In this document: piece by piece, positions 2,418 to 36,836 of the stretch
Layout: every line of letters starts with the position of its first letter
How positions within the stretch are numbered: position 1 is the first letter of the stretch
Origin: a virus
Taxonomy: Duplodnaviria; Heunggongvirae; Uroviricota; Caudoviricetes
DNA length: 36,836 bases
Virus record (IMG/VR): IMGVR_UViG_2585428015_000012
Strand: one strand, 5' to 3'
Made by a program: the position numbers and the translations under genes
The notes under the pieces: model-generated
Told to the model about the DNA's origin: nothing
Databases searched by the model: none
Seen by the model: only the letters and a program-made list of their open reading frames with translations

Positions 2418-2447
2418 GCGTCAATACGGTGCTCCGTTGACGCTTAC
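2418..2447. repeat. IS66 right terminal inverted repeat (contains an internal dyad GCGTCAA..TTGACGC)
   Basis: Sequence read directly; begins immediately after the transposase stop and ends with ...CGCTTAC (GTAAGCG on the other strand). Confidence 0.6.
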
Positions 2448-3535
2448 AAATTACCTGCGTAATGAGAAAAACTTGTACCATCCTGCCGTGAAAGCAGATC
2501 GCGCCCTGTATCCACTTTTCGCCCGTCGTCCCATCCACGGATAAACTCACCGCGTAAATCGGGAAGACGGAGGGTCGGGTAGACTCTGGCCAGAACAGGA
2601 TATTGTTCTTTTGTAAAGGCGCGCCCGTCGCACTTTAACCAGCCTGCTGGCGGTGTGGCAGTGGGCCACGGAACAGGTACACCAACGGGCAGCGCCGAGC
2701 CTTCCCCCAAACCAAGGTAATTGAGGACATCTTTTATACTGCCCTTAGCGATAATAGCGCGACCAATAGCTGTAAGGGTTGCCAGCTCTGCGCGGTCTGC
2801 TCCGGTAAAATAAGGCAACCGATCTGCTGCAGTGGCAAGTCCTGCCAGAGCAGTGAGCGTGGCATCTGCCGGTTGTTTTCCGTTTGCCAGATCGTATGCA
2901 GCCTTGACCGCTTTCGGTGTGGCGGCCAGTATTTCAGACGTGCTGTTGATGGCACTGCTCAATTGTACGGTGCCTTTTGCCGTCAGCGAGGCAGCAGGCA
3001 CTCCCGTTATCTGACTCCACGGGTGAGTGTGGCTGACGGGCGCCTTGCCGGCTGCAAGGTCGTATGCAGCCTTGACCGCCTTCGGCGTGGCAGCCTCAGT
3101 TTCTGATTGACTGTCCGTGGCGCTGCTCAGTTGTACGGTGCCTTTTGCCGTCAGTGAAGCCGCAGGCACTCCCGTTATCTGACTCCACGGGTGAGTGTGG
3201 CTGGCAGGCGCCTTGCCGGCTGCCAGGTCGTATGCAGCCTTGACCGCTTTTGGTGTGGCGGCCAGCGTTTCAGAGGTGCTGTTGGTGGCACTGCTCAGTT
3301 GGGTGAACCCCTTAGCTGTCAGTGTCGCGTCCGGGTGGTTACGGGAACGTACGTGTTCAGCCAGTGACTGTGCGGCTTCCTCCGTTTTCTTCTTCAGCCA
3401 TTTCGTCCTGTTTGCCAGTTGCCGGGGGGCTCGATTTGATATCCCGTCTGCACCACCCAGAACCGGATCTGATGTCTCCAGTTGATAGATATTTTCTTCC
3501 CACTTTTCTGTTTCATTCAGGTTTCCCATAATCAA
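2444..3535 (-). CDS. Phage tail fibre protein, 3'-truncated by the IS66 insertion (stop codon lies inside the IS terminal repeat)
   Basis: 363 aa ORF with three tandem ~56 aa repeats (TAKG.VQLSSAT.S.SET.AATPKAVKAAYDLA) and a C-terminal segment matching the phage tail-collar pattern (GWLKCDG...LPDLRGEFIRGW) that breaks off where the IS begins. Confidence 0.75.
   Translation of the reverse strand: MIMGNLNETEKWEENIYQLETSDPVLGGADGISNRAPRQLANRTKWLKKKTEEAAQSLAEHVRSRNHPDATLTAKGFTQLSSATNSTSETLAATPKAVKAAYDLAAGKAPASHTHPWSQITGVPAASLTAKGTVQLSSATDSQSETEAATPKAVKAAYDLAAGKAPVSHTHPWSQITGVPAASLTAKGTVQLSSAINSTSEILAATPKAVKAAYDLANGKQPADATLTALAGLATAADRLPYFTGADRAELATLTAIGRAIIAKGSIKDVLNYLGLGEGSALPVGVPVPWPTATPPAGWLKCDGRAFTKEQYPVLARVYPTLRLPDLRGEFIRGWDDGRKVDTGRDLLSRQDGTSFSHYAGNL
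2860..3340. repeat. Three tandem ~168 bp in-frame repeats inside the tail fibre gene
   Basis: Motif cgtatgcagccttgaccgc recurs at 2893, 3061 and 3229 (168 bp spacing); flanking sequence also repeats. Confidence 0.8.
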
Positions 3536-4110
3536 CTGCTCCCGTGGTTATAACTGCCATCATGGATGGCGGTATTGTTATAGCGAATGGCCACAGACTG
3601 ATACTCCAGGCTGGCCAGATGGCAGCGGGCCGGTGCAAATGCAGCCAGCGTCTGACGCAGCATCGCGGCCTGATCGTTAGTAATGGGCTGTTTCAGAATA
3701 ACGCGATAAACTGCCCAGGCGGCTGCATCTCCATGAACAAACAGTCCGTTATAGCTGCGATTGCCGTCGTAACTGAGACGACCTGTGCCTTCAATCAGAT
3801 CCACTTCACCAAAGCCAAAACGGCGGATAACTTCCCGGATTGACCACGGCGTCCCTTTATACCGGTGCAGTTCGATGGCTGCTTTTATAAGCATGCGGCG
3901 AACATCGTCCGATTCCGCCAGCTCCCAGCCATCGCCAGACAGTGAGAACTGCTCGCCCAGCCATGGCAGCGCGGAACTGTCGACGATATCGACGAGAAAG
4001 ACCATCAGTACGCTCAGGTCGATGTTATCCAGCCGTCCTGCCAGTCTTCCCAGCGTCCTGAGACTGATATCACCCTCAAGCGGTGGCGGGAGTTGTAATG
4101 GCTCAGTCAT
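3532..4110 (-). CDS. Phage tail protein (Mu gp48 / P2 gpI-like)
   Basis: 192 aa ORF between baseplate J-like gene and tail fibre, overlapping both; position and size match the Mu/P2 tail protein I. Confidence 0.65.
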   Translation of the reverse strand: MTEPLQLPPPLEGDISLRTLGRLAGRLDNIDLSVLMVFLVDIVDSSALPWLGEQFSLSGDGWELAESDDVRRMLIKAAIELHRYKGTPWSIREVIRRFGFGEVDLIEGTGRLSYDGNRSYNGLFVHGDAAAWAVYRVILKQPITNDQAAMLRQTLAAFAPARCHLASLEYQSVAIRYNNTAIHDGSYNHGSS

Positions 4111-5206
4111 CAGACACTCCAGTCATGTTAAGAGTGATTGCCGTACAGTTTGCCCATTCGTTTTCTGCCACCACCCGCAGTGCCGGTGTCACCAGTTCAA
4201 CCTGGTACACCCCGGAAACGGACAATGCACTGATAATCTGGCTGGGGACAATATCGCGCCCCAGCGTGGCGGCACGTGATGCCACCCAGTTCTGTATGGC
4301 GCTGTTAGCGGCATCTTTTACAGACCTGGCATCCTGATCACGATAGATCGTAATCCTGGCTTCAATGGTGTAATCCACCTTCACTGGTGTTTTAGCCCGC
4401 ACTGTATCAGTGAGTGGCCTGACTTTCTCATCAGAGCAGAAACTCTCTACCAGCGTGAGAACACCGCCGTCCGGCAGACCGGTACTGAGCAGCGGATACA
4501 GATCTACGGTCCCGGGAACCGGGGAAAGCACAGCAACATCGACAATGTTGGGATGGGCCTGCATGGCATGAAAGCGGTATGCGCCACGGCTTCCGGCATT
4601 GGTGAATGACTCCGGGGCCAGCCTGATACGCTCCCGGAGCCTGTCATCGTCTTCCTGTTCTGAACCGCCGGAACTGGCCATCAGATTGCTCACCAGCAGG
4701 TTAACGTTATCAATCTCATCGAGTAACTGACTGACCTGCGCAGGTTGCCAGCCGTTACCAGCGGTACCGGGTTCGGTACAGGTGGCCGTGACATTGACCA
4801 GCAGCAATCCGGCCTTCAGTACCACATCTGTATCGGTGGCAAAAATAACGCTGTCGGAAGCGCTGACGCGGGTGCCTGCCGGGATCAGCACATCAATGGC
4901 CAGTGCCTCATCTACGGAGAACTGGAGCGTGGTGGTGGCAGGCTGCGCGGCAAGACGGTATACACCGACCAGTTCACCGAGGTAATCAATCATCGGCTCA
5001 CGGGCAAAGGCGACCAGATTCTGCTTTGCTGCCTCCTGTACCGCAACCCTGACCAGCATTTCGCGATAGGCCCACAGATCAATCAGCAGACGTTCTGCCT
5101 GTGCCGGGTACAGCGTTTTGCCGGTATCCGCTTCATACTTCGCAATCATTTCTGCCGTGATTTTGTCGGCATCGCGTTCAATAAAATCGGGTTCTGTCAG
5201 CGCCAT
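4103..5206 (-). CDS. Baseplate J-like protein (Mu gp47-like)
   Basis: 367 aa ORF in the conserved baseplate position; overlapping neighbours. Confidence 0.75.
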   Translation of the reverse strand: MALTEPDFIERDADKITAEMIAKYEADTGKTLYPAQAERLLIDLWAYREMLVRVAVQEAAKQNLVAFAREPMIDYLGELVGVYRLAAQPATTTLQFSVDEALAIDVLIPAGTRVSASDSVIFATDTDVVLKAGLLLVNVTATCTEPGTAGNGWQPAQVSQLLDEIDNVNLLVSNLMASSGGSEQEDDDRLRERIRLAPESFTNAGSRGAYRFHAMQAHPNIVDVAVLSPVPGTVDLYPLLSTGLPDGGVLTLVESFCSDEKVRPLTDTVRAKTPVKVDYTIEARITIYRDQDARSVKDAANSAIQNWVASRAATLGRDIVPSQIISALSVSGVYQVELVTPALRVVAENEWANCTAITLNMTGVSDD

Positions 5207-5544
5207 AGCAGCTCCTGAGTCCGGGTCTGTCCGTCTGAGCCTTTCCAGCTCACCCGGAGCGTAAGATGTTCGCCGTCGACGGCGGGTTTAACTGACATAA
5301 GCTGGCAGCGGGGCTCCCAGCGCCGGATGGCATCGACGGATTCGCGCACCACATGCGGAATGGCCCGGTCTACAGGCCAGTCGATATAAAGATGCAGATT
5401 GCTGCCGAACTCCGGGCGATGCGGGTCGCTGCCGCGGGGAGTCCGCAGGATAATTTGAATCGCCTGCCGGATATCATCCAGCCCCCGGACAATTTCGCCG
5501 GGAGCCTGCAGGGCTGGTTGCCAGAATACTGAGGTTGTTTTCAT
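5197..5544 (-). CDS. Baseplate wedge protein (GP46 / gpW / T4 gp25-like)
   Basis: 115 aa ORF immediately upstream of the J-like gene, typical size and synteny. Confidence 0.65.
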   Translation of the reverse strand: MKTTSVFWQPALQAPGEIVRGLDDIRQAIQIILRTPRGSDPHRPEFGSNLHLYIDWPVDRAIPHVVRESVDAIRRWEPRCQLMSVKPAVDGEHLTLRVSWKGSDGQTRTQELLWR

Positions 5545-5598
5545 GGGGGCAGTATTGCCCCCGTGCGGGAACGCTGATATTAAAGGCGTTTAAAAAGC

Positions 5599-6195
5599 TC
5601 AGTGGGAGTGGTGGCTGGAGTTTTCGCCATCAGACAACATACTGCCCGTGGCATGGACATTCCCTTTAATCTCGATATTGCCATGGATGGTCGCGGTAAC
5701 ACCTTCACCACCAGAACCCGCCATGCCTCCTTCGTAAATCAGCTTACCCCTGACACGCAGATCTCCGGTAAGTTCGGTTTCCGGTGCGTCAATCGTGGCT
5801 TTCTGTGTTTTCAATACCACATCAGCACCACACTCAATGACAATATGCTCAATGCCGCCCCGGATGATCAGAGTGTGCGTCTTCCGGTTGTAGCTGTACT
5901 CTGCACCATCAGCAAACCGGGTTCCCCGGATATTTTTGTCACTGAACGGTGGTTTATCGACGTCTGAATACACCGCGCCCAGAATAACACCATCCTCGCC
6001 GTTGGCATCGAGCAGCACCTCAACCTGCTCCCCCACGTCAGGGAGCCAGTAATCTTTGTTATCCTGGGTATTGCGCTGCAGCACGTTAAGCCAGTTTGTG
6101 CGCAGGTTATCGCATTCAGGCAGACGAACGCGGGCCTGAACCCTGTCGGCATCAACGGCACTGACCGTACCGACCTGACGAGTGACACCAGTCAT
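5599..6195 (-). CDS. Baseplate assembly protein V / central spike (Mu gp45-like)
   Basis: 198 aa ORF; synteny between the gpD-like and gpW-like genes. Confidence 0.65.
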   Translation of the reverse strand: MTGVTRQVGTVSAVDADRVQARVRLPECDNLRTNWLNVLQRNTQDNKDYWLPDVGEQVEVLLDANGEDGVILGAVYSDVDKPPFSDKNIRGTRFADGAEYSYNRKTHTLIIRGGIEHIVIECGADVVLKTQKATIDAPETELTGDLRVRGKLIYEGGMAGSGGEGVTATIHGNIEIKGNVHATGSMLSDGENSSHHSH

Positions 6196-7346
6196 TTTTT
6201 CTTCTCCTTAATCACCGTCGATGTACTGCCATCCGGGTGATAAACCGTGAGTTTCTGAGTTTTTTGTTTTTTCCCTCTTGTGACTGGCCCCCGTGCCACT
6301 TCCAGCTCTGTGGTGTAGCCGCTGTTACGGTCAAACGCATGGCGGGCAGTGGTTATGAGCCATGGCCCGGATAACTGCCCAAAACTCACCAGTTCAATTT
6401 TGTTGCCTGCTGTCAGTTGAGGTGTTCCCGTCAGCGTCAGGGAGCCGTTCTGCTGGTATTCGTTATGTCTGGCCAGTGCTGAATCCGCTTTAATCCGGGC
6501 ACTGTCCGGGTCGCTGACGCGGCTGTTAACTTTAAGTGAGTCAGCGCTGGTAACCTTACCACCTTTGAGCTTTTTGTCGCTTTCACGGGTACCACCATCA
6601 GCTTCGTAGACGATCAGTTTTTTACTGCTGCTTTTCTGGTGTTTTACCTTTGCAGATTTATAGACCCGGTTGATGGTGTCACGCAGGGAAAAGCGGGCCA
6701 CATCCTGCGGTTTTAACTGCCTGACCGGCTCCTGACTGCGCAGTGTGGCCAGATGAGAAAAAATCAGCTGGTCACTGACCACTTTCACTGCATAACCATA
6801 CTCGCTGGCCAGCCGGCGCAGAAAACCCACGTCGGTTTCAGCATACTGGGTCACCCGGTCGATTCTGATGGACTCAATGCTGCCCACCAGTTTCAGCCGG
6901 TGCTTTCTGGCAATCCGCCCCGCAACAGCTGCCAGCGTGGTGTTCTCAAAACCACGACTGGTTTTAGTCCGCAGGGCACTGTTAACCGAGGTGGCCACCC
7001 CACGGATAGAAACAACGGAAGCGGGCGAACTCACTTCGATCTCGTCTATAGAGAACGTACCGCAGGACAGCAGCTTCTCGCCCTGATAGCCCATTTTCAG
7101 CGTCAGCGTGTCACCCTTGCCCGGATACCATTTATCCAGCCAGCGGCCATCGGTGTCGTCCAGCTCCACCTCAATGGTATCGGACTCATTTTTGATGTTA
7201 TCGCTCCAGGTCACACGGGTGACATAAGGCGCGATATCAGAGGTGATGTTTTTCTGCAGATACCACAGAGTGAACACCGGTGTCAGCACATCGCTGACGC
7301 CGGTTAACGCTGATGTGACTTGCGCAGTGCTGTTTATCTCAGCCAT
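6192..7346 (-). CDS. Phage late control D-like / baseplate hub protein (Mu P-like)
   Basis: 384 aa ORF following the tail X-like and tape measure genes in the conserved myovirus tail order. Confidence 0.65.
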   Translation of the reverse strand: MAEINSTAQVTSALTGVSDVLTPVFTLWYLQKNITSDIAPYVTRVTWSDNIKNESDTIEVELDDTDGRWLDKWYPGKGDTLTLKMGYQGEKLLSCGTFSIDEIEVSSPASVVSIRGVATSVNSALRTKTSRGFENTTLAAVAGRIARKHRLKLVGSIESIRIDRVTQYAETDVGFLRRLASEYGYAVKVVSDQLIFSHLATLRSQEPVRQLKPQDVARFSLRDTINRVYKSAKVKHQKSSSKKLIVYEADGGTRESDKKLKGGKVTSADSLKVNSRVSDPDSARIKADSALARHNEYQQNGSLTLTGTPQLTAGNKIELVSFGQLSGPWLITTARHAFDRNSGYTTELEVARGPVTRGKKQKTQKLTVYHPDGSTSTVIKEKKK

Positions 7347-7549
7347 GGGGCAATATCCTCTTCTGTACGGGCTTCTTCAGCCTCAATCACCGGGATCAGT
7401 AACAACAGCCCGGAGGGCAGCACCGGCGTGATGGCCACGTGCGGATTGGCGGCAATAATCCGGGGATAGCCCAGCGGGTCACCGTAGTACTGCCATGCCA
7501 GCGAATCCCAGCGCTCTCCGTCACGGGTAACATGTTCAAGAAACATCAC
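7334..7549 (-). CDS. Tail protein X-like small protein
   Basis: 71 aa ORF overlapping both neighbours in the position of P2 gpX-like genes. Confidence 0.55.
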   Translation of the reverse strand: MMFLEHVTRDGERWDSLAWQYYGDPLGYPRIIAANPHVAITPVLPSGLLLLIPVIEAEEARTEEDIAPWLR

Positions 7550-8430
7550 ACACTCCTCGTCAGTATTCTGGCGGCCATTGCACTTAATCCCGGAGACATG
7601 CGGTTGAATGCTGTGCCGACGGCGTTAAGCTGCCCGGAAACGGTATCCAGAGCACCTGCAATATTTCTTTTGTCCACACCACTCAGCGCAGACTGTGCCT
7701 GCTGTACATACGTGGCTGCTTCGCTGGCTGTTCTGGCCAGACTGATGGCATCGGGCATGGATTCAGAGAGTGCGTTAAACGCCGGAACACTTTTCCCCAG
7801 AGCCCCGGAGATATTACCCAGTCCGCTCATCAGCCCCGGCACACGGGTCAGTGCGACAACGGGGTTATCCTTCATTTTCTGTGTCACCCGAACGGCGCTG
7901 ATAGTGGTCTGGAGTACAGACTGCGCCTGTTTCGCATAGTTGACGCCGTTGCGGATGAACTGCGCCACCCCTGAAGGTGAAGGTATGGCACCGGAGACCG
8001 CCCCGACACCCGGGAGCTTCGTGCGTATTGCCGGTGGTTGCAGAGGATTTTTCGGGTCACCGGTGTATTCCCGGAGAGACACGGTGGCACTGACAGCCAG
8101 CACGTTGCCGGTACTGTCAGTCTGCTCGCTGGTTGCAGTCACATCGGTGATCACGAACCAGCCGCGATAGTCACCGTTGCCGAAGACCAGCGCCAGTGCC
8201 TGATGGGCTTTCATGGCTGTTCGCAGTCTCGCCAGCTCCACATCGGGTACACAATAATGCTGATGGAAAACCAGAGTTATCTGGATTTCGTCCAGCCTGT
8301 CGCCGACGAACTGCAGACCAGGCTTACCCCCGATGCGGGCATGCTCCGCATAATCGACGCCGAACGTGGCCTCGAAGCCGTCCCAGTAGGTAATCAGCTC
8401 AAACTCAATATCACCCAGTACGGCAAACAT
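7546..8430 (-). CDS. Tail protein with GpU-like N-terminal region (Mu N / DNA circulation protein analogue)
   Basis: 294 aa ORF directly downstream of the tape measure gene (ATGA overlap); N-terminus MFAVLGDIEFEL... resembles the P2 GpU family. Confidence 0.55.
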   Translation of the reverse strand: MFAVLGDIEFELITYWDGFEATFGVDYAEHARIGGKPGLQFVGDRLDEIQITLVFHQHYCVPDVELARLRTAMKAHQALALVFGNGDYRGWFVITDVTATSEQTDSTGNVLAVSATVSLREYTGDPKNPLQPPAIRTKLPGVGAVSGAIPSPSGVAQFIRNGVNYAKQAQSVLQTTISAVRVTQKMKDNPVVALTRVPGLMSGLGNISGALGKSVPAFNALSESMPDAISLARTASEAATYVQQAQSALSGVDKRNIAGALDTVSGQLNAVGTAFNRMSPGLSAMAARILTRSV

Positions 8431-12253: not shown

Positions 12254-12255
12254 CG

Positions 12256-27668: not shown

Positions 27669-27675
27669 AACAAAA

Positions 27676-27784: not shown

Positions 27785-28141
27785 TCAGCCTGCGATTTTT
27801 CCTGGTTTTGGCTGAGTATAGAATCGCCCAATCTCAAGAAATGAGCGTTGTTGGTCTGGTGTCATGTCGTCAAAAGTATCTATTAGTTTTTGTTTTTCTG
27901 GGGAAATTTGATTCTGGTTTCTAGTCATACCATCTGTGCTCATTCCAGTGAGCAACCAATTTACATCAACATTAAACTCTTGATGCATCTTTAACAGAAA
28001 CTCCCCTCCAGGCATCGCCTTTCCATTTTCAATCTGACTGATACCACCATTAGAAATACCTAAACGAGCTGCAAATTCTCTCTGGTTCAACCCTGCTTTC
28101 TTCCTCACAGAAATAACGCGCTCTCCTATATCTTTGCTCAT
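27785..28141 (-). CDS. XRE-family HTH repressor (phage immunity repressor, c-like)
   Basis: 118 aa; HTH motif LNQREFAARLGISNGGISQIENG; transcribed divergently from the early operon across an operator-like palindrome; AT-rich. Confidence 0.75.
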   Translation of the reverse strand: MSKDIGERVISVRKKAGLNQREFAARLGISNGGISQIENGKAMPGGEFLLKMHQEFNVDVNWLLTGMSTDGMTRNQNQISPEKQKLIDTFDDMTPDQQRSFLEIGRFYTQPKPGKIAG

Positions 28142-28164
28142 AAAAGTGAATCTCTATCTTGATA

Positions 28165-28182
28165 TGCTCATAATTATGAGCA
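28165..28182. promoter_or_regulatory. Perfect 18 bp palindrome TGCTCATAATTATGAGCA in the repressor/ner divergent region (candidate operator)
   Basis: Read directly; lies between the repressor start (28141) and the ner-like start (28235). Confidence 0.5.
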
Positions 28183-28234
28183 ATAATCTAACACATATAA
28201 GGCAAACATCATTGCATCAACAAAGGAGACAACG

Positions 28235-28423
28235 ATGACTGCAGAACAAGTCAAAGCTCTCTTCCGCCAGCGCGGGATCACTTTCACCCGCTGGGCAGAA
28301 GAAAACGGCTACAACCGCAATGAGGTATACCGCGTTCTCAACGGGCAGACCAAAGCCCGTTACGGTAAATCCCATGAAATCGCCGTGAAGTTGGGACTGA
28401 AATCAACAGCTCAGGCGGCCTAA
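28235..28423 (+). CDS. Ner-like small DNA-binding protein
   Basis: 62 aa; AAGGAG ribosome-binding site; pattern ALFRQRGITFTRWAEENGY...GKSHEIAVKLGL resembles the Ner/Nlp HTH family; first gene of the early operon next to the repressor, as in Mu. Confidence 0.6.
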   Translation: MTAEQVKALFRQRGITFTRWAEENGYNRNEVYRVLNGQTKARYGKSHEIAVKLGLKSTAQAA

Positions 28424-28469
28424 ATATTTTGAGTCTTTGTAAAAGGTTATCACATATCGCAAAAGAGGT

Positions 28470-28784
28470 ATGCAGATGAGTAAGACGAATGTTTCAAGCT
28501 CCGGCAGTCGCATCCTCCGGGTACTCAAAGCGCTGCGCGGTCATGCCCTGAACGGTATTTCTAACGGTGAACTGGCGACAGCACTGCACGAGTCACCGGC
28601 AAACATCAACCGGGCACTCAACACCCTCATTGAAGAAGGGCTGGCTCTGAAACTGGAGAACGGACGTTTTGCACCGGGCATCCAGTTACTGCAGATCGCC
28701 ATGGCCCACAGTAACGAGATGGCACGTGCACAGGATCGTATTAACGAAATTAACCAACGTGTCATTTCAGGTAGTCGTTTGTAA
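28470..28784 (+). CDS. Putative winged-helix DNA-binding protein
   Basis: 104 aa; good ribosome-binding site; HTH-like segment GISNGELATALHESPANINRALNTLIEEGL. Confidence 0.45.
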   Translation: MQMSKTNVSSSGSRILRVLKALRGHALNGISNGELATALHESPANINRALNTLIEEGLALKLENGRFAPGIQLLQIAMAHSNEMARAQDRINEINQRVISGSRL

Positions 28785-28794
28785 GGAGTAATCA

Positions 28795-29715
28795 ATGGGA
28801 CGTACCAAATCACCGATTAACACTGAACTGAACGCCGATGTACCGCTGTCGGATGATCTCAACGTCAGCCTGAATGCCATGACACAGCATCGCATGGAGA
28901 TCATGCAGCAGTTTGGTGATGGACTGCCTTATGAACGTGAACGCATCGTTCACGAAGCACGTTTTTATATGGCGCAGAGTGCTGAATCTATGTTGGAAGC
29001 GGGTAAGCGGCTGATCATCTTAAAAGAAAATGAACCGCATGGTGATTTCACAAATATTCTGGAAAACGACCTCGGATTAGCACCACAGGTAGCTCGTCGC
29101 ATGATGCAGGCCAGCGTGAAATTTCTCGGCAATGGAGATGAACAGCCAAAACGCTCAGCGCTGAGCGTTTTGGGAAAAACCAAGTTATATGAACTGATGG
29201 TTCTGGATGACGAAGAACTCGACGCATTAGCTGATGGTGGAACCGTCGCCGGTGCAACGCTTGATGATATTGATCGCATGACCAGCCGCGAACTGAAGGC
29301 CGCCCTGCGTGAAGCGCGCGAAACCAACGCAGCTCAGCAACAGGTGCTTGCCGGAAAGGACGAAAAAATCAACGAACTGGCCACAAAACTGGAGAAGAAA
29401 TCGCGCCTGCAACCTCCGCCGCCAGACGAAGAACTGAAAAAATTGCGGGCGGAAGTGACGGCATTAGCGGTTGAGGCCGAATCGGCTATCGCCGTCCGGC
29501 TGTCCAGTGTTTTTGAGACCCTGTGTGAATACTGCACCAAAAACATGATCGATACCCCCAGAGATTTCATGGCCGGTCTGGTCTGCCAGATTGAACGCAG
29601 TGTTCATGCATTACGTGAGACGTTTGACCTTGAGGCCGCTCCATCGGGTAACGATGCCCCCGCCTGGCTGACCGAACCGGAACCTGAAATCAACCGACCG
29701 GAGGATATGCAGTAA
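28795..29715 (+). CDS. Hypothetical early protein (306 aa, coiled-coil-rich; DUF3102-like by recollection)
   Basis: TAAGGAG ribosome-binding site; acidic/coiled-coil composition; between ner-like gene and transposase. Confidence 0.45.
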   Translation: MGRTKSPINTELNADVPLSDDLNVSLNAMTQHRMEIMQQFGDGLPYERERIVHEARFYMAQSAESMLEAGKRLIILKENEPHGDFTNILENDLGLAPQVARRMMQASVKFLGNGDEQPKRSALSVLGKTKLYELMVLDDEELDALADGGTVAGATLDDIDRMTSRELKAALREARETNAAQQQVLAGKDEKINELATKLEKKSRLQPPPPDEELKKLRAEVTALAVEAESAIAVRLSSVFETLCEYCTKNMIDTPRDFMAGLVCQIERSVHALRETFDLEAAPSGNDAPAWLTEPEPEINRPEDMQ

Positions 29716-30032
29716 TGAATACGAATAACACACAAAATACCCTGATGGACAGCCCGGAGGCACTGGGGCACGCACTGTGTAATCTGCTGCCGGAGATGGT
29801 GCAGGGTTTCCGCGTGGTGACCCCTTCCGGTGAAATCTGCGTACCCGCACAGGAGACGCACCCGTTTGTACTGACGATGGAGGTGATGCTGATGCAGCAG
29901 ATAAGACGTCTGCAGAATCAGTCAGCATTACGCCCGGTAGTTGCACCGCAACCGGTAAATACCGTGGTGAAAACCTGCGATGGCGAAACACTGTGCGACC
30001 TCGCCAGAAAAATTGCCGCCAGAATCGGATAA
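29715..30032 (+). CDS. Hypothetical early protein (105 aa)
   Basis: TAATG-coupled to the preceding gene. Confidence 0.4.
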   Translation: MNTNNTQNTLMDSPEALGHALCNLLPEMVQGFRVVTPSGEICVPAQETHPFVLTMEVMLMQQIRRLQNQSALRPVVAPQPVNTVVKTCDGETLCDLARKIAARIG

Positions 30033-30047
30033 CAGGGAAGACAAGCT

Positions 30048-31817
30048 ATGACCCCGGCACTGACTGAAAAACTGGTTGAAACAGCCCGCGCGGCACGTGA
30101 CGCGGGGCATGGTAAACGCGGTGCAATATACGACGCTGCCTGTGCTGAACTTGGCATGTCCCGCGCCACTCTGCTGCGCAGGCTGAAGGAGGTATCTGTG
30201 ACTGATAAACGCAAAAAACGCGCCGATGCCGGGCGCAGCGCCCTGACCCGCGACGAAGCCGCGCTGATATCTGCCACACTGCGTGAGGCCACCCGCAAGA
30301 ACGGTAAGCGTCTCTATTCCATCGCAGATGCAGTGGAAACCCTGCGGGCTAACGGCTTTATCACCGCAGGCAGAACAGATGAAACCACCAGTGAGTTTTT
30401 CCCGTTGTCTGAAGATGCCATCAGCCGTGCTCTGCGTAACTATGGCCTGCACCCGGAACAACTGGATGCCCCTGCACCACATACCGAAGTGGCCAGTCTG
30501 CATCCCAATCATGTCTGGCAGATTGACGCCTCACTCTGCACGCTTTACTACCTGAGCAATGGACATAAAGGGCTGCAGGTGATGGACAGCGCGAAGTTCT
30601 ACAAGAACAAGCCCGCTAACCTTGCCCGTATCGCCAGTGACCGCGTGTGGAGTTACGAGATTACCGACCATGCCAGCGGCTGGATTTACGTTGAGTATGT
30701 GACGGGCGCGGAATCAGGTGAGAACCTGTGTTCTGTGCTTATCAACGCCATGCAGGAGCGTGGCGGCGCAGACGTGCTGCACGGCGTGCCGAAAATACTC
30801 TATCTCGACCCCGGCTCGGCAAACACCGCGGGTATGACGAAAAACATGTGCCGCTCACTGGGCATCGACCTGATAGCGCACAAGCCGCATAACGCCCGCG
30901 CCACCGGACAGGTGGAAAAGGCGCGTGACATTATCGAACGCAAGCTGGAGCCGGGTCTGAAGTTCCGGCCGGTTCACAGTCTGGAAGAACTCAACGCGCT
31001 GGCCGCGAAATGGCGCAGCCACTTTAACGCCACGGCTGTTCACAGCCGCCACGGTAAAACCCGCACGGATATCTGGCTGAAGATTACTGCTGAGCAGCTG
31101 AAAAAAGCGCCTTCCGTTGAGGTATGTCGTGAACTGGCTGTGGCGGCACCAGAACTCCGCAAAGTCACGCCAAAACTTCGTGTCTCGTTCCGGGGCACTG
31201 AATTTGACGTATCAACGGTACCGGGCGTACTGGTTGGTGAAAAACTGATGATTACCCGTAACCCATGGCGCAGCGATGTGGCACAGGTGGTTCTGACCGG
31301 TGAGGACGGCCACGAGACGTTCTTCCTGGTCGAAGAGGTCAGAAAGAACGAGTTTGGCTTTGCTGAAGGCGCGGCGGTATTTGGCGAAAGTTACAAAGCC
31401 CTGCCGGAAACCCCGGCACAGATGGCGGCAAAAGAAACCGAAGCGCTGGTTACCGGTACAGACAACGCCGCAGATGCAGCCGCCGCACGCAAGGCGAAGG
31501 CGCTGCCGTTCGGCGGGCGGCTTGACCCGTATAAACATATCGACGACACCACACTTCCGGCCTATATGCCGAAGCGTGGTCAGGCCTCTGACGTACGCGG
31601 GCCGCGCACTGAACAACGTCCCATGACTCATGTGGAGGCCGCGAAAGCCCTGCGCGATAAGTTCAGCGCCGACGGCCTTACCTGGACGCCGGAACATTAC
31701 CGCCAGTTAACGGCACAGTACCCGGACGGCGTACCGGAAGCCGCACTGGATGAAGTCATGGCCACGCTGACCACACCGGCCCGCAGCAGTGTTATCAGCA
31801 TTGTTAACGGCAACTGA
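30048..31817 (+). CDS. Phage DDE transposase (Mu A functional analogue; integrase-core fold with N-terminal HTH)
   Basis: 589 aa; N-terminal HTH (MSRATLLRRLKEV); central core with conserved acidic residues (WQIDAS..., LYLDPGSANT..., QVEKARDIIE); followed by an AAA+ ATPase gene as in transposable phages. Confidence 0.85.
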   Translation: MTPALTEKLVETARAARDAGHGKRGAIYDAACAELGMSRATLLRRLKEVSVTDKRKKRADAGRSALTRDEAALISATLREATRKNGKRLYSIADAVETLRANGFITAGRTDETTSEFFPLSEDAISRALRNYGLHPEQLDAPAPHTEVASLHPNHVWQIDASLCTLYYLSNGHKGLQVMDSAKFYKNKPANLARIASDRVWSYEITDHASGWIYVEYVTGAESGENLCSVLINAMQERGGADVLHGVPKILYLDPGSANTAGMTKNMCRSLGIDLIAHKPHNARATGQVEKARDIIERKLEPGLKFRPVHSLEELNALAAKWRSHFNATAVHSRHGKTRTDIWLKITAEQLKKAPSVEVCRELAVAAPELRKVTPKLRVSFRGTEFDVSTVPGVLVGEKLMITRNPWRSDVAQVVLTGEDGHETFFLVEEVRKNEFGFAEGAAVFGESYKALPETPAQMAAKETEALVTGTDNAADAAAARKAKALPFGGRLDPYKHIDDTTLPAYMPKRGQASDVRGPRTEQRPMTHVEAAKALRDKFSADGLTWTPEHYRQLTAQYPDGVPEAALDEVMATLTTPARSSVISIVNGN

Positions 31818-31827
31818 GGAGGGAAAC

Positions 31828-32994
31828 ATGCTGGTACTGAAGCAGCAACTGAAAGAGGCCCGTATTCCACAGGCGGTGGTGGCGAGAGCTGTCGATGTTT
31901 CTGAGGCCACGCTGGCCCAGATTGTGAATCATAACGCGTGGCCCCGCACCAGCCCCGGAGAAGTGCGCCGGCGTCTTGCGTCCTGGCTGGAAAGTCAGGG
32001 GATTGATACAACGAAGAGTTTTGATGCTGTACAGGGCGCGGCCACGCCCCGTACAGCGGGTACCACAGATAAAACGAGCCTCAGTGAGGAAGAGAATATG
32101 TTACTCAAAAAACAGGTGTTATTTCCAGCAACCAAAAAAGCGTTTGGTCTTTTCCGTGACCCGTTCGCCGACGAAGCCATGCAGGGTTCTGATGATGTGT
32201 TCACCACCCCGGACATTCGCTACGTGCGTGAGGCGCTGTACCAGACAGCCCGTCATGGTGGGTTTATGGCCGTCATCGGTGAGTCCGGTGCGGGTAAATC
32301 CACGCTGCGCCGCGACCTGACTGAACGTATCAACCGCGAGAATGCGCCGGTAATTGTTATCGAGCCATACATCATCGCTATGGAAGACAACGATGTGAAA
32401 GGGAAAACCCTGAAGGCAGCAGCTATTGCCGAAGCCATTATCAGTACCATCGCACCACTGGAAAGCATCAGACGCAGTCAGGACGCCCGTTTTCGCCAGT
32501 TGCATCGCGTCCTGAAAGACAGCAGCCAGGCGGGGTTCAGCCACGTTCTGGTGATTGAGGAGGCCCACAGTCTGCCCATTCCGACACTGAAACACCTCAA
32601 ACGCTTTTTTGAGCTGGAGTCCGGTTTCAAAAAACTGCTGTCCATCGTGCTGATTGGCCAGCCGGAACTGGCGACAAAACTGTCTGAACGCAATATGGAA
32701 GTCCGTGAAGTCGTTCAGCGCTGTGAGGTGGTCGAACTTCTGCCTCTGGACAATAACCTTGAAGAATTTCTGACGTTCAAACTGCAACGGGCCGGTAAAC
32801 AGCTGACGGACATTATGGACGCCGGTGCAGTGGATGCCATACGTGCCCGCCTGAGCAATCCGGGAAGTCACCGTAAAAATATGGTCAGCCTGCTGTATCC
32901 GCTGGCCGTCAGTAACCTGGTAATAGCCGCCATGAATCTGGCCGCTGAAATCGGGGTTCCACAGGTCAACGCTGACGTTGTCAAAGGGGTTTAA
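31828..32994 (+). CDS. Transposition AAA+ ATPase (Mu B functional analogue)
   Basis: Start at ATG 31828 with GAGGAGGG upstream; Walker A GESGAGKST, Walker B-like VLVIEEAH; N-terminal HTH-like segment. Confidence 0.8.
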   Translation: MLVLKQQLKEARIPQAVVARAVDVSEATLAQIVNHNAWPRTSPGEVRRRLASWLESQGIDTTKSFDAVQGAATPRTAGTTDKTSLSEEENMLLKKQVLFPATKKAFGLFRDPFADEAMQGSDDVFTTPDIRYVREALYQTARHGGFMAVIGESGAGKSTLRRDLTERINRENAPVIVIEPYIIAMEDNDVKGKTLKAAAIAEAIISTIAPLESIRRSQDARFRQLHRVLKDSSQAGFSHVLVIEEAHSLPIPTLKHLKRFFELESGFKKLLSIVLIGQPELATKLSERNMEVREVVQRCEVVELLPLDNNLEEFLTFKLQRAGKQLTDIMDAGAVDAIRARLSNPGSHRKNMVSLLYPLAVSNLVIAAMNLAAEIGVPQVNADVVKGV

Positions 32995-32996
32995 TA

Positions 32997-33266
32997 ATGA
33001 AATCCACCACAGGTATCAACCAGCAAATCAGCAAAGTGCAGTCAGCCATTATGGCGCTTAAGGCGACGAACACGGATGTACAAAGCATCACCATCAGGGG
33101 TAACAAACCTGTCATCCGCGTTTCCCGGAGTGCGCATTGCATGCGCATGCTTGAGCAGGGAAAGGCCTGTTATCTGTATACCGGACATGACCACAGGGGA
33201 TATTTCCGTCAGGGCGTTTTCGAACTGCACGGCTGTCGCGTCGTGTGGCCGGAATCTTTGTGGTAA
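32997..33266 (+). CDS. Hypothetical small early protein (89 aa)
   Basis: Coupled to the B-like gene stop (TAATAATG). Confidence 0.45.
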   Translation: MKSTTGINQQISKVQSAIMALKATNTDVQSITIRGNKPVIRVSRSAHCMRMLEQGKACYLYTGHDHRGYFRQGVFELHGCRVVWPESLW

Positions 33267-33293
33267 TCAGCACAACTGGAGAAATCATAAAAA

Positions 33294-33824
33294 ATGGCAA
33301 AAAGTACAAAAGGTGCAAAACGTATCAAGGCCGCAGCAGCACTCTGGGTGCCGGGGACACGTGAAGAGGTCATTGAGGGAATCAGACTACTCGGTGACGC
33401 ACAACGTGAACTGGTCAGGGCTGAAACAGAAATGAATGACGCCATTGGCGATATCACCGCACGTTATGCCCCGCTCACCGAGAGCCTGAAAAAACGCATG
33501 GCCGAACTGCAGTCCGGTATTCAGACATGGTGTGAGGCACACCGTGATGAACTGACCGGCAACGGGAAGGTGAAGTTCGCTAACCTCACCACCGGCGAGG
33601 TGCAGTGGCGAAACCGTCCGCCATCAGTCAGTATCCGTGGGGCGGATAATGTTATTGAATTACTGAGACGTCTGGGGCTTGAGCGCTTTATTCGTGTAAA
33701 AGAGGAAATAAATAAAGACGCTATCCTGAATGAAAAAGAGGCCGTGAAAAATATTCCCGGTATTTCCATTAAAAGCGACATTGAGGATTTTTCAATAATT
33801 CCTTTTGAGCAGGATGTGCAGTAA
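33294..33824 (+). CDS. gam: Gam-like host-nuclease inhibitor (Mu Gam family)
   Basis: 176 aa; near-colinear resemblance to Mu Gam (MAK..KRIK.AAA, ETEMNDAI, WCEA.RDELT..GKVK.ANL.TG.V.WR.RPPSVSIRG, GISIKSDIEDFSIIPFEQ). Confidence 0.85.
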   Translation: MAKSTKGAKRIKAAAALWVPGTREEVIEGIRLLGDAQRELVRAETEMNDAIGDITARYAPLTESLKKRMAELQSGIQTWCEAHRDELTGNGKVKFANLTTGEVQWRNRPPSVSIRGADNVIELLRRLGLERFIRVKEEINKDAILNEKEAVKNIPGISIKSDIEDFSIIPFEQDVQ

Positions 33825-33921
33825 ACACACCACGTTAATTATTTAATAAAAACATTTTCTTTTTTATTCCGACGTCAGCGCCGCGGGCTTCTGCACGCCG
33901 GAAACAGAGGAGAATTAAATC

Positions 33922-34116
33922 ATGATATTTAAATGTATTCAGTGCGAGAGGGATATAACAGCCCTGCGTTTTCACAGCGCCATCGCCGTGATGTCCGGTA
34001 AATACCACATCCCTGCGGTACGCGTCACCCTGGTCTGCCCGTACTGCAGCCAGCATTTTTCGGCAGACGTGCCCGTCATGGAATTCTCCCGCCCTGACAG
34101 GGAGGACTCGCAATGA
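33922..34116 (+). CDS. Small zinc-ribbon protein (CxxC...CxxC)
   Basis: 64 aa; GAGGAG ribosome-binding site; Cys pairs at 5/8 and 39/42. Confidence 0.45.
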   Translation: MIFKCIQCERDITALRFHSAIAVMSGKYHIPAVRVTLVCPYCSQHFSADVPVMEFSRPDREDSQ

Positions 34117-34385
34117 TTACCCCACAGGAAGCACGACAGCGCACCCGAACCCTTGTTGAACACTATGTCAACGAGTGTGAATGCCGCGACCTCACCGATG
34201 TGAAGCACGTCCTGACGGCGCTAATCAGCATGGCCACACAGGCCATTGTGGCGACCAACGGAAAGGAGGCTGCCCTGCAGGTACTGATGAACACACTCAC
34301 CCACACGGCAGAGCATGAGGTGCCGTACCGGATGGAAACCACTGCAGAAGGCGGCCTGCACATCACCGTCAGCCGGAAGCACTGA
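34113..34385 (+). CDS. Hypothetical small early protein (90 aa)
   Basis: GGAGG ribosome-binding site; ATGA coupling. Confidence 0.45.
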   Translation: MITPQEARQRTRTLVEHYVNECECRDLTDVKHVLTALISMATQAIVATNGKEAALQVLMNTLTHTAEHEVPYRMETTAEGGLHITVSRKH

Positions 34386-34394
34386 GGGCGCGGC

Positions 34395-34691
34395 ATGACA
34401 CGAAACACCGAACTCACCCGCACCGCCCTCTACCGTCTGGCCCTGCAGCGTTTCGGGCCGGACGCACAGGCCCTGAAACTGGCAGAAGAGGCCGCTGAAC
34501 TGGCGGCCAGTGCCGCCCGCAACCTGAACGGACAGGGCAGCGAAAGTGACCTCGCGGCAGAGCTGGCAGACGTGGAAATCATGACAGAGCAACTGCGCCT
34601 TCAGGGGATGGACCGGCTGATTGACTTCCACAAACAGAAAAAACTGGAACGTCTGGCTGCACGACTGGGCGTGATTTACACGAACGAGTAA
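34395..34691 (+). CDS. MazG-like nucleotide pyrophosphohydrolase domain protein (tentative)
   Basis: 98 aa all-alpha protein with paired acidic motifs (EEAAELAA...AAELADVEIM...L) resembling small MazG/HisE-type NTP-PPases. Confidence 0.45.
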   Translation: MTRNTELTRTALYRLALQRFGPDAQALKLAEEAAELAASAARNLNGQGSESDLAAELADVEIMTEQLRLQGMDRLIDFHKQKKLERLAARLGVIYTNE

Positions 34692-34705
34692 CCGGGAGGC
34701 ATTCA

Positions 34706-34921
34706 ATGGCTGACATACTCAGGGAAATCACCGCATGGACACTGATTCTTACTGGCCTGGCGACATGCCTCAGTGCGGGGGCAGCCCTGGCTGCCCTGCT
34801 GATGCACATAACAACACAGTGGTTATGGGAAAAGCTTAAAGCAGCATACAGCCTGAAAGAGCTGTCCGACGCTGTCCGGGCATGGAAACGGCAGAAAAAT
34901 ACCGGAGATACAGAACAATGA
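34706..34921 (+). CDS. Small membrane protein (71 aa)
   Basis: GGGAGG ribosome-binding site; hydrophobic segment WTLILTGLATCLSAGAALAALLM. Confidence 0.45.
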   Translation: MADILREITAWTLILTGLATCLSAGAALAALLMHITTQWLWEKLKAAYSLKELSDAVRAWKRQKNTGDTEQ

Positions 34922-35601
34922 CAGACCAGAATAAACACATTGAGAAACTGAAAAAGTTGCTGGCGCTGGCCGCATCCGGCAACCCGCACGAGGCCGCTCT
35001 GGCACTGCGCCGAGCCCGTAAACTGATGGATGTTCACGGCATCACACATTCCGACATTGCTATGAGTGATATTGATGAAACCATCAGTCACTACTGGCCG
35101 ACAGGCAGTCTCCGTCCACCGCGCTACATGCTGGGCCTGATGAACATCATCCGCGAGGTATTTGGTGTTAACTCCATCATTCACCCCGGCACGCATCCGT
35201 CTGTGGGGTTCTACGGCAACCGGGAACGTGCGGCACTGGCTGCATACACCTGGGAAGTGCTGGCCCGTCAGCTGAAAAAGGCGCGTCAGCAGTATATCAG
35301 TGCACAGAACAAAAGAATAAAAACCGCCACCCGCACCAGCCGTGGAGACCAGTTTGCCGAAGGCTGGGTGCTGGCCGTTATCAGTGAAATACAGTCCTTT
35401 GCCCTGACCGATGATGAGCGTGAACTGATGCAGCAGTGGCTGGAACATAAATACCCGCAGACGCAAACCACCAGGGCGCGTAAACCGGGAAGAAGCCGCA
35501 ATGGCGACGCCTCGCGCTATGCGGGGTTTCGTGAAGGGCAGAACGTCAGACTGCACCGCCCGGTCAGTGGGCAGGAACAACAGAAACTGGAGGCCAGATG
35601 A
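34918..35601 (+). CDS. Hypothetical early protein (DUF2786-like by recollection)
   Basis: Start at ATG 34918 (ATGA overlap with preceding gene, GGAG upstream); 227 aa. Confidence 0.45.
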   Translation: MTDQNKHIEKLKKLLALAASGNPHEAALALRRARKLMDVHGITHSDIAMSDIDETISHYWPTGSLRPPRYMLGLMNIIREVFGVNSIIHPGTHPSVGFYGNRERAALAAYTWEVLARQLKKARQQYISAQNKRIKTATRTSRGDQFAEGWVLAVISEIQSFALTDDERELMQQWLEHKYPQTQTTRARKPGRSRNGDASRYAGFREGQNVRLHRPVSGQEQQKLEAR

Positions 35602-35828
35602 TTACGCTATCAGGTAAAAGCCGGAAATTAAAAGCCTGCCGAATATCTGCCAGATACCTTTTTGCCCGCGCCTTTTTTAAGAACGTCAGGCCGGGGATCA
35701 CAATTGGTGTTATTGCCGGACGCGAACAGGTTGAAAAATACATGTCAGGTGCATGGTGGAATAACGACCCTGTCATTGCTGCCCGTAATATTCATATCGA
35801 ATGGGGAGGTATTCAGAATGACTACTGA
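35598..35828 (+). CDS. Hypothetical small protein (76 aa)
   Basis: ATGA-coupled ORF in the early operon. Confidence 0.4.
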   Translation: MITLSGKSRKLKACRISARYLFARAFFKNVRPGITIGVIAGREQVEKYMSGAWWNNDPVIAARNIHIEWGGIQNDY

Positions 35829-36024
35829 AACCATTGTCTGTTTTCTTTTCTGGTATATGTACGCAGGATCATGCAGCGCAAGACTTCATCGTTCCCTGGG
35901 CTATGGCAGGCACTACGACACCGCGCATTACATCCTGTACATGACCGCCGTCATGTTGTTCTGGCCAGTCACCCTGCCAGCTGCAACCGACATTGTTGCC
36001 GACAGACTGAAAAAAAGGAGATGA
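35818..36024 (+). CDS. Small membrane protein (68 aa)
   Basis: Start at ATG 35818 with GGGGAGG 8 nt upstream; hydrophobic segments. Confidence 0.4.
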   Translation: MTTETIVCFLFWYMYAGSCSARLHRSLGYGRHYDTAHYILYMTAVMLFWPVTLPAATDIVADRLKKRR

Positions 36025-36025
36025 T

Positions 36026-36475
36026 ATGCAGAAAAAACGCCTGATACAGCTTATCCATATTGCCCGTAATGAACTGGGTATGGATGAAGACACCTACCGC
36101 CAGATGTTACAGGGGCTGACCGGTAAAGCCTCAACCAAAGGAATGGATACCACACAACTAAACTGCGTGCTGGAATCCATGAAAAAGAAAGGCTTTCGCG
36201 TTAAACCAGCCAGAAAAGCCAGCTCCGGTTTACCGCTTGATAACCATCCGCAGTCCAGGAAAATTCGTGCGCTATGGCTTGAAATGGCTGCTGCCGGCAT
36301 TGTTCGTGACCGTTCAGAAAATGCATTAGCGAGGTGGATCAAGCGGGAAACGGGCATCAGCGCCCTGCGCTGGCTCAGTACTGAACAGGCAAGCAGTGTT
36401 ATTGAGAAACTGAAGAAGTGGCAGCGCAGAGCTGCGGGAGTCAAACATGAGCGACCTGAATCAGTTTCGAAGTAA
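36026..36475 (+). CDS. GemA-like regulatory protein (Mu gp16 family)
   Basis: 149 aa; N-terminus KRLIQLIHIARNELGMDEDTYRQML..LTGK.S resembles Mu GemA-type proteins; immediately upstream of mor as in Mu. Confidence 0.6.
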   Translation: MQKKRLIQLIHIARNELGMDEDTYRQMLQGLTGKASTKGMDTTQLNCVLESMKKKGFRVKPARKASSGLPLDNHPQSRKIRALWLEMAAAGIVRDRSENALARWIKRETGISALRWLSTEQASSVIEKLKKWQRRAAGVKHERPESVSK

Positions 36476-36836
36476 GGGGCCGGAACTCCTGGTGGAACTG
36501 GCACAGCATACCTCTGAGACCGTTCGCGAGATTATTGATATTGAGCCCGAAGTTGCCGACCAGATTGGTCAGGCCGTCGCGAACCGAATGATGCAGGTCT
36601 GGGGCGGGCAAAACGTTTATTTCCCGATGGGCATGGTATGGAAGGTCAGTCAGCGCGACCGGGAAATCTTCAGGGAGTTTAACGGACGCAACCACCACGA
36701 ACTGGCCCGCAAATTTGGTGTTTCGCTTCAGTGGGTCTACAGCGTGGTTAAGCGGGTAAGAAAAGAAGAACTGGATCGGATGCAGGGCAAGCTATTTGCT
36801 GATGAACCCGATGCAGATACGGAGAAAAAAGAGTAA
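36447..36836 (+). CDS. mor: Mor-like transcriptional activator (Mu Mor/C family)
   Basis: 129 aa; C-terminal HTH (NHHELARKFGVSLQWVYSVVKRVR); last gene of the early operon in the window. Confidence 0.75.
   Translation: MSDLNQFRSKGPELLVELAQHTSETVREIIDIEPEVADQIGQAVANRMMQVWGGQNVYFPMGMVWKVSQRDREIFREFNGRNHHELARKFGVSLQWVYSVVKRVRKEELDRMQGKLFADEPDADTEKKE

Follow-up and report, generated by a model that had tools for sequence, protein, structure and literature searches.

The 36,836-nt stretch of DNA analysed here (IMG/VR virus record IMGVR_UViG_2585428015_000012; hereafter the window) contains most, about 34.4 kb, of a BcepMu-type prophage, a temperate transposable myovirus that measures about 37 kb in full and is interrupted by the insertion sequence (IS) ISEc23. 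The genes, identified from an open reading frame (ORF) map, from Pfam, PHROGs and NCBIfam scans and from the RefSeq and GenBank annotation of identical DNA, form two clusters that are read outward from a central control region (Table 1), and we regard it as highly probable that they make up a single transposable BcepMu-type phage of Escherichia coli. Counted in window positions, the element begins at about -2585 and ends at 36999, a 2,532-bp copy of ISEc23 and its 8-bp duplication included, and thus extends about 2.6 kb past the left edge and 163 bp past the right edge of the window, which is without any host flank. The element has roughly 51 genes; all phage genes in the window other than the tail fibre are intact open reading frames, and Rfam and tRNA scans of the window gave no RNA genes.

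By blastp, 38 proteins of the window have a counterpart in BcepMu, at 31-76% identity and in conserved order, and 12 have one in Mu, chiefly TerL, F, portal, G, gp36, Gam, GemA and Mor. In blastn alignments of the phage part of the window, 32% aligns with BcepMu at 67.7% identity in one colinear series (about 22% overall), compared with 2.1% for Mu. The BcepMu-like family, which an initial annotation made from the letters of the window had named, is supported by gene content, gene order that is colinear through the centre, ends, the taxonomy line of a deposited phage of identical sequence, and the published account of BcepMu, in which two clusters lie on opposite strands with lysogeny control at their interface (Lavigne et al. 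2009, PMC2771037). BcepMu is also described as having a Tn552/IS1604-type transposase, terminal CA dinucleotides, a TerL related to that of Mu and a P2-like tail cassette (PMC2771037), and TG...CA termini are reported for BcepMu-related prophages (PMC2628397). The E. coli element shows the corresponding features of the BcepMu-like group, namely divergent clusters on opposite strands with an outer Mor/C gene, an rve/Tn552-like transposase with its AAA partner, the same kind of TG...CA ends, a holin/SLT/spanin cassette, a Mu-type head and a P2-type tail. It differs from BcepMu in having a Mu-like Gam, Dam, three central genes of unassigned function and Gin-type tail-fibre inversion, and in lacking the acyltransferase gp53 and most of the small early genes of BcepMu.

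Table 1. Features of the window, from left to right (positions in window coordinates).
Feature	Position	Strand	Evidence and remarks
ISEc23, IS66 family (not phage)	1-2447	plus	tnpA 1-426, tnpB 423-773, tnpC 804-2417; RefSeq names
Tail-fibre gene, P2 H / Mu S type	3529-2448	minus	Pfam Phage_fiber_2 (E=2.6e-56), Collar
Inverted-repeat arm, 229 nt	2490-2718		Partner arm and Gin-type recombinase outside the window
U, X, D, V, W, J, I	down to 3532	minus	Phage_P2_GpU, Phage_tail_X, Phage_GPD, Phage_base_V, GPW_gp25, Baseplate_J, Tail_P2_I
P_W box TTAAACGCCTTTAATATC	5576-5593	minus	Upstream of baseplate W; 19 nt, then AATACT
Tape measure (T)	8430-11381	minus	
Tail chaperone E	11539-11874	minus	Pfam Phage_TAC_7
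P_E box TTAATCTCCTTTAATATC	11927-11944	minus	Upstream of tail chaperone and tape measure; 19 nt, then CATACT
Tube FII	12256-12777	minus	Pfam Phage_tube; 67.1% identical to BcepMu
Sheath	12777-14204	minus	Pfam Phage_sheath_1; 75.9% identical to BcepMu
DUF2190, gp36, gp37 and gp38 genes	in head module, 14194-22899	minus	Pfam Phage_Mu_Gp36, Gp37
Capsid	15705-16658	minus	
Protease/scaffold	16673-17788	minus	
P_I box CTAAAGCAGATTAAAATC	17844-17861	minus	Upstream of protease/scaffold; 19 nt, then CAAACT
G	18003-18461	minus	Pfam Phage_tail_S listed in module
F	18464-19312	minus	Pfam Phage_Mu_F; 47.5% identical to Mu F
Portal	19266-20762	minus	Pfam Portal_Mu
TerL	20762-22357	minus	62.6% identical to BcepMu, 48.8% to Mu
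TerS	22354-22899	minus	Pfam Phage_Mu_Gp27; 67.2% identical to BcepMu
Spanin	23533-24183	minus	RefSeq name
SLT transglycosylase endolysin	24167-24907	minus	Pfam SLT
Holin	24910-25260	minus	Pfam Holin_2-3 (E=1.5e-41)
P_lys box TTAACGCGCTTTAAAATC	25311-25328	minus	Upstream of holin; 19 nt, then -10-like GATGCT
Accessory block, lower G+C	25391-27668	both	48-49% G+C against 55-60% in late region
242-aa protein	25391-26119	plus	phrog_3787, function unknown
134-aa protein	26095-26499	minus	phrog_2266, function unknown
71-aa protein	26498-26713	plus	Unknown-function PHROG at most
Dam methylase	26814-27668	plus	Pfam MethyltransfD12, TIGR00571
Hairpin, 11-bp stem, 3-nt loop	27675-27699	minus	TTTGTTT follows on minus strand only; 7 nt past dam stop codon
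CI-type repressor, 118 aa	27785-28141	minus	Pfam HTH_3 (E=4.6e-15), Phage_CI_repr
Divergent control region	28142-28234		93-bp gap between repressor and first early gene
Early promoter TTGATA-17-AATAAT	28159-28187	plus	Sigma-70 promoter scan, 10/12 matches
Perfect 18-bp palindrome TGCTCATAATTATGAGCA	28165-28182		Fills early-promoter spacer; read from sequence
BcepMu gp16-family helix-turn-helix (HTH) protein, 62 aa, Ner/Cro position	28235-28423	plus	TIGR04111, 97 bits (cut-off 34)
HTH_IclR-like regulator	28470-28784	plus	Pfam
DUF3102 protein	28795-29715	plus	Pfam
105-aa protein	29715-30032	plus	
DDE transposase, rve core	30048-31817	plus	Pfam rve only, no Mu transposase domains; phrog_310 'transposase' (E=3.7e-147)
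AAA+ transposition ATPase	31789-32994	plus	Pfam AAA_22 (E=3.8e-20); phrog_296 'DNA transposition protein'; annotated start 31828
HI_1482-family protein	32997-33266	plus	
Gam	33294-33824	plus	Pfam Phage_Mu_Gam (E=9.9e-41); 61.5% identical to Mu Gam; no BcepMu homologue
DUF2786/DUF7168 protein	34882-35601	plus	Pfam
Small ORFs among remaining early genes	within 32997-36024	plus	
GemA	36026-36475	plus	Pfam GemA (E=8.3e-41); 43.6% identical to BcepMu gp02, 35.8% to Mu GemA
Mor/C-family activator, complete	36447-36836	plus	PF08765 (E=1.3e-43), 147.8 bits (cut-off 24.9); 54.2% identical to BcepMu gp01

Like Mu (NC_000929), the element is a transposable temperate myovirus with TG...CA ends, proteins of the Gam, GemA and Mor families, Gin-type inversion and TerS, TerL, portal, F and G of Mu type; both have four late promoters with a bipartite A/T box and no -35, although in the E. 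coli phage the dependence on an activator is predicted. Mu has MuA and MuB, a two-step relay from Mor to C, its own set of tail genes and a 5-bp target duplication, whereas the E. coli phage has an rve-type transposase, one Mor/C gene, a P2-type tail and a 6-bp duplication. The order of genes differs as well: in Mu everything from ner to the tail fibres lies on one strand with the repressor at the left end, whereas here the early and late blocks diverge. Without homologues of MuA, MuB, c and ner, with a single Mor/C gene and with the divergent order, the element does not belong to the genus Muvirus (Mu, D108). The 'BcepMu-like viruses' (BcepMu, NC_005882, and phiE255) were reportedly also treated by Summer et al. 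in 2004. For membership of the same genus, ICTV practice is a genome-wide nucleotide identity of about 70%, and the element falls short of the 70% or more to BcepMu that the genus Bcepmuvirus in the strict sense would take; given the overall identity to BcepMu, the Bcepmuvirus label of the deposited phage reflects gene content and not this threshold. The transposase also relates the element to Pseudomonas phage B3, whose transposase A shares 56% identity and is encoded on the strand that runs against the record numbering, as in BcepMu; B3 is a siphovirus with a flexible tail (PMC2771037), whereas the tail of the E. coli element is predicted to be of the contractile P2 type.

At the interface of the two clusters, the repressor gene sits between the late and the early block, in the middle of the element, as the initial annotation had it. 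It has the position and strand relation of BcepMu gp17, yet the two repressors are unrelated by blastp and the gene is poorly conserved among relatives, which fits a variable immunity gene. The palindrome in the early-promoter spacer is probably an operator for the repressor or for the gp16-family protein. On the other side of the repressor, dam reads toward it, and the hairpin between the two genes is probably the terminator of the repressor transcript. Because its T-run lies on the minus strand only, it is not clearly a bidirectional terminator; of the earlier suggestion that the convergent pair shares a terminator hairpin, the convergence and the hairpin stand, and the T-tract serves one direction only.

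The early operon reads rightward on the plus strand from 28235 and ends with gam, gemA and mor, as anticipated and as the ORF map and Pfam show. Its first genes (28235-30032) include homologues of BcepMu gp16, gp12 and gp10; the transposase is 67.8% identical to BcepMu gp09, and the AAA+ ATPase, 58.7% identical to BcepMu gp08, is the putative functional counterpart of MuB. In six-frame searches nothing significant was found to MuA, MuB, the Mu c repressor or Ner, and MuA had no match at E<=1, so the A-like and B-like genes of the initial annotation hold for position and function and not for detectable similarity to the Mu proteins. It had further placed the late activator beyond mor, outside the window. 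This is refuted: mor is the last gene of the element, with its stop codon at the window end and 163 non-coding bases between it and the phage end ...CAAGTCTAATCA, and a six-frame search of the whole element gave one Mor/C homologue only. BcepMu gp01, likewise outermost as the first gene of its genome, bears the annotation 'late transcriptional activator, Mu protein C/Mor'. Among 68 relatives belonging to other species, 39 have the end motif A(W)(W)TATCTCA-N7-TCA less than 700 nt past the mor stop (31 of them within 55-172 nt), which makes mor as the terminal gene a family trait. At the C-terminus of the window Mor (...QGKLFADEPDADTEKKE), QGKLF aligns with QPDLF, the clamp-binding motif of Mu C (motif from PMC12867686), which is reported to be necessary for late transcription (PMC12867686).

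A candidate binding site for this activator emerged when the non-coding gaps ahead of the late operons were compared. A search of the window for TTAA-N6-TTAAWATC that tolerated one mismatch gave exactly four sites, always on the minus strand and each time in the gap upstream of a late operon; the four boxes have the consensus YTAA-N6-TTAAWATC and are followed after exactly 19 nt by a -10-like hexamer, with no -35 element. In BcepMu, all four corresponding places have a related box, among them CTAAAGCCGATTAAAAGA upstream of the holin gene gp21, the near-identical GTAAAGCCGATTAAAAGA upstream of gp32 and TTAGCCGGCTTTAATATC upstream of gp49. A degenerate form of the pattern was then sought in 80 loci of other species, fetched with the transposase as query (2.36 Mb), where it occurs 46 times, 45 of them on the late-gene strand; a box lies at most 260 nt upstream of 19 of the 31 holin genes detected there, and the hexamer nAnnnT follows exactly 19 nt downstream in 4/4 window boxes and in 44 of the 46 others (chance about 1 in 16). 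The conservation spans Enterobacterales, Burkholderiales, Neisseriales and Pseudomonas, the Pseudomonas loci having the box TTAAACCCGATTAAAAGC, 19 nt and then GATCAT. In Burkholderiales and Pseudomonas loci a GC-rich palindrome is centred on the hexamer, as in catgccgcc-GATCAT-ggcggcatg. For Mu C, four binding sites with the consensus TTAT-N5-6-ATAA are described, at promoters with a -10 but no -35 (PMC12867686). The four window boxes are probably targets of the single Mor/C protein, which would activate the late operons directly; as Mor is diffusible, neither the opposite strand nor the distance of about 28 kb to the late promoters is a difficulty.

The layout of BcepMu, with the late genes on the opposite strand and upstream of the early operon, is found in 50 of the 80 relatives, or in 50 of 53 once the 27 that stayed undecided within the fetched flanks are set aside. 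The order of Mu is found in three (L041, L043 and L047), which have at least two of six late markers (holin, SLT, spanin, gp25, gp26 and TerS) on the strand of the early operon and downstream of it. In L041 all six follow directly after mor, and a late box lies on the opposite strand at about 737. BcepMu-type end motifs were sought beside the repressor in these three loci, with no convincing match. Their transposases are 63-68% identical to that of the window, and both layouts thus coexist within one transposase lineage. It is possible, and we propose it tentatively, that throughout the BcepMu/B3 group a single Mor/C protein acts directly on promoters of the form YTAR-N6-TTAAWAKM, 19 nt, nAnnnT, in place of the Mor-then-C relay. 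The family-wide late-promoter design is the only point here that is possibly unreported; no description of it was found in the searchable literature, and the 2004 papers on BcepMu (J Mol Biol) and B3 (J Bacteriol) may report it. Otherwise little is new, as the phage is already deposited and its family, of which the divergent layout is a hallmark, was described in 2004-2009.

The ends of the element were mapped in strain Ec-U4 (locus L002), where it lies between ycaL and aroA, against the empty site in strain GF130 (L003). The fibre-side end reads ...TGCATTTATCGCGCGGCGCATCA| and the mor-side end |TGATTAGACTTGAGATAAATGACAGGG. In identical or near-identical E. coli copies the ends read TGATTAGACTTGAGATAAATG... 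and TGATGCGCCGCGCGATAAATG..., and in BcepMu TGAAGAGAGGTGAGATATTT... and TGAAGCGCGGCGCGATATTT...; both ends start with TGAT, giving TG...CA termini, and at each there are two GMGATAWWT sites separated by about 22 bp, which is also the arrangement at both BcepMu ends. Among the 60 records listed, 40 have the element at aroA-ycaL and the match runs through the host flank. In the other 20 the mor-side homology stops at or near the mapped end (exactly there in 12; the exceptions run 1 to 6 bases further, and one match is 29 bases short), and the 10 of these with an annotated host neighbour lie beside 10 different genes (a type III secretion gene, LysR, SWIM, ABC transporter, prpR and others). Target duplications of the length that the initial annotation had asked for, 5-6 bp, were found in two independent insertions, both of 6 bp: ATTAAA in strain DEF10, where a 37,546-bp element splits a SWIM-domain gene, and GTTAAT in strain MEI3O-23, where a 37,978-bp element splits a LysR gene. 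Insertion at many sites with short target duplications is thus evident, the aroA-ycaL copy excepted. At aroA-ycaL the prophage abuts ycaL, and a deletion takes the ycaL start codon. RefSeq still annotates ycaL there, with the start placed inside the phage end.

Of 5,426 complete E. coli genomes, 640 (about 12%) carry sequence matching the prophage, and some of these hold two copies. Over window 24000-36836 the identity to Escherichia phage PhiKM (PQ738613), which has the taxonomy line Bcepmuvirus, is 100%, and over 2583-22901 it is 99.9%; the window copy differs from PhiKM in having ISEc23 in the invertible tail-fibre segment. Klebsiella phage KP12 (OM835952) and Escherichia phage Phi06_2974 B (KM389306) are 85-87% identical, counting aligned parts only (46% to 79% of each query). 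In bioRxiv 10.1101/2022.05.07.487787 ST131 isolates are recorded as having a Bcepmuvirus prophage, and the E. coli lineage of the element is that of PhiKM, KP12 and the prophage of many ST131 genomes. The PhiKM record is a partial, permuted scaffold in which the tail-fibre contig breaks inside the inverted repeat (PQ738613 20233-20577).

At its left the window begins 85 bp inside ISEc23, whose right end, ...GACGCTTAC (...CGCTTAC), falls at 2447. The initial annotation had started the element at 2444, a boundary that cannot stand: 2444-2447 belong to ISEc23, and the phage continues beyond the left window edge. The insertion interrupts the tail-fibre gene in its variable 3' part, about 55 codons short of the stop, as read on the far side in L002, an identical locus in which the 8-bp target duplication AAATTACC is seen, without an accompanying deletion. 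A repeat search of L002 gave the two inverted-repeat arms at 40248-40476 and 44609-44837 (94% complementary), and the recombinase, 76.8% identical to Mu Gin, lies at the very end of the element (L002 44901-45473), outside the window. Strain DEF10 has four inverted-repeat arms, which suggests multiple inversions. For BcepMu, a tail-fibre inversion system is reported to be absent (PMC2771037).

Three other explanations of the window were weighed. The switch of strand polarity at the centre, the drop in G+C to 48-49% and the central genes without BcepMu homologue could mark a place between 25300 and 28200 where two prophages, or a prophage and a remnant, abut, and phage ends in that interval had been named in advance as the finding that would speak for it. 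They were scanned for and none was found: with one mismatch allowed, the phage end motif matches the window once, in the portal gene, against 0.6 matches expected by chance, and the two-site end pattern does not occur in the window. BcepMu shares the layout, as do 50 of the 53 other-species relatives for which it can be determined. In DEF10 and MEI3O-23, moreover, the whole unit of 37.5-38.0 kb is bounded by 6-bp duplications and splits a single host gene; since one unit lies between the duplications in both strains, abutting prophages are rejected as having hardly any chance of being right. A true relative of Mu (genus Muvirus) with its early region inverted, by rearrangement or by assembly error, would account for the identities of Gam, TerL and F with Mu (Table 1), for the shared GemA and Mor and for the closeness of the recombinase to Gin. 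However, no more than 2.1% of the DNA can be aligned to Mu, the element lacks homologues of MuA, MuB, the Mu c repressor and Ner, the tail is of P2 type and the duplication is 6 bp as against 5 bp for Mu; a matching prophage in 640 complete genomes makes assembly error unlikely. Protein matches, DNA alignment and six-frame searches together lead us to discard an inverted Muvirus as next to impossible.

That the element is of BcepMu type while this copy is defective or domesticated, no longer transposing or forming infectious particles, we consider unlikely, although it deserves real attention. ISEc23 sits in the tail-fibre gene in its expressed orientation, the ST131-type copy lies without a duplication beside an 88-bp deletion, as if fixed in 360 genomes, and relatives bear IS1 and ISEcp1-blaCTX-M-15 insertions. 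Yet all other window genes are intact, the identical sequence, host DNA adjoining its end, has been deposited as phage PhiKM, an intact alternative fibre end could be brought in by inversion between the 229-nt repeats, and near-identical copies are found at many sites, two in some genomes. Our preferred reading, a single transposable BcepMu-type phage, has several points to weigh against it. The copy in the window carries an IS in the tail-fibre segment and, in its present orientation, may form no infectious particles. The commonest site, aroA-ycaL (360 genomes), shows no target duplication, and 88 bp of host DNA are missing there (L003 313-400 compared with L002 2981-3010 and 45540-45560), so that this copy does not come from a simple insertion left untouched. 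With so little of its DNA alignable to BcepMu, the element is BcepMu-like in gene content and order and is no close kin. The count of four boxes and its shuffle statistic are circular, since the pattern was derived from the same window gaps, and the box counts in the other-species loci are not independent events, as these loci are related by descent. Finally, we infer from sequence all of repressor-operator binding, Mor-box binding, replicative transposition and inducibility.

Taken as a single BcepMu-type phage, the element might work as follows. During lysogeny the CI-type repressor would bind the palindrome in the early-promoter spacer and keep the early operon silent, by analogy with Mu and BcepMu. 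Upon derepression the operon would be read toward the right end, through genes for the HTH protein, the transposase, its AAA+ partner, Gam, GemA and Mor, each with the role expected of its family. The transposase would recognise the two GMGATAWWT sites observed at each TG...CA end and insert with a stagger of 6 bp, the length of the duplications found. As in BcepMu, lytic replication would run through repeated transposition, and the DNA would be packaged by the headful together with adjoining host DNA. Between its contig break and the mor-side phage end, the PhiKM record contains a 344-bp piece of host DNA (gene for an Fe2+ ABC transporter permease), the sole hint of host DNA on virion ends. 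The single Mor/C activator would turn on four opposite-strand promoters, at which the boxes lie, for the lysis, head, tail and baseplate operons; the Mor-then-C relay of Mu would thereby be reduced to one step, with four promoters that mirror the four C-dependent ones of Mu. The Gin-type invertase present in the element would flip alternative tail-fibre ends and thus alter host range, and the end expressed here is broken by ISEc23. Studies of its induction have concrete targets in the four late-promoter boxes, the mapped ends and the 6-bp duplication.

The remaining late genes follow BcepMu closely in order. The region 22899-25260 on the minus strand comprises, besides the lysis cassette, two small conserved genes homologous to gp25 and gp26, all of them counterparts of BcepMu gp21-gp26. 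The head and packaging module (14194-22899) is 42-67% identical to that of BcepMu by blastp, and the tail module (3532-14204) is 31-76% identical to BcepMu gp39-gp51, with conserved order. From these genes the particle is predicted to combine a Mu-type head with a P2-type contractile tail, so that Mu-type head and tail genes on the minus strand from about 25260, as first annotated, are correct in strand and for the head, and the tail is of P2 type instead. None of the genes of the accessory block (25391-27668), dam included, has a BcepMu homologue, and the 242-, 134- and 71-aa proteins had no match in PADLOC, NCBIfam or Pfam. These three genes, beside dam and between the repressor and the lysis genes, occupy a usual site of accessory cargo genes.

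The window can serve as reference coordinates for the prophage of about 12% of complete E. coli genomes, the ST131 lineage included. In strain Ec-U4 an ISEcp1-blaCTX-M-15 unit of about 2,976 bp lies inside the transposition ATPase gene (L002 7635-10607), an insert that the window copy is without, and in other strains IS1 lies in the early region of the prophage. Copies of this prophage are thus landing sites for ISEc23, IS1 and ISEcp1-blaCTX-M-15.

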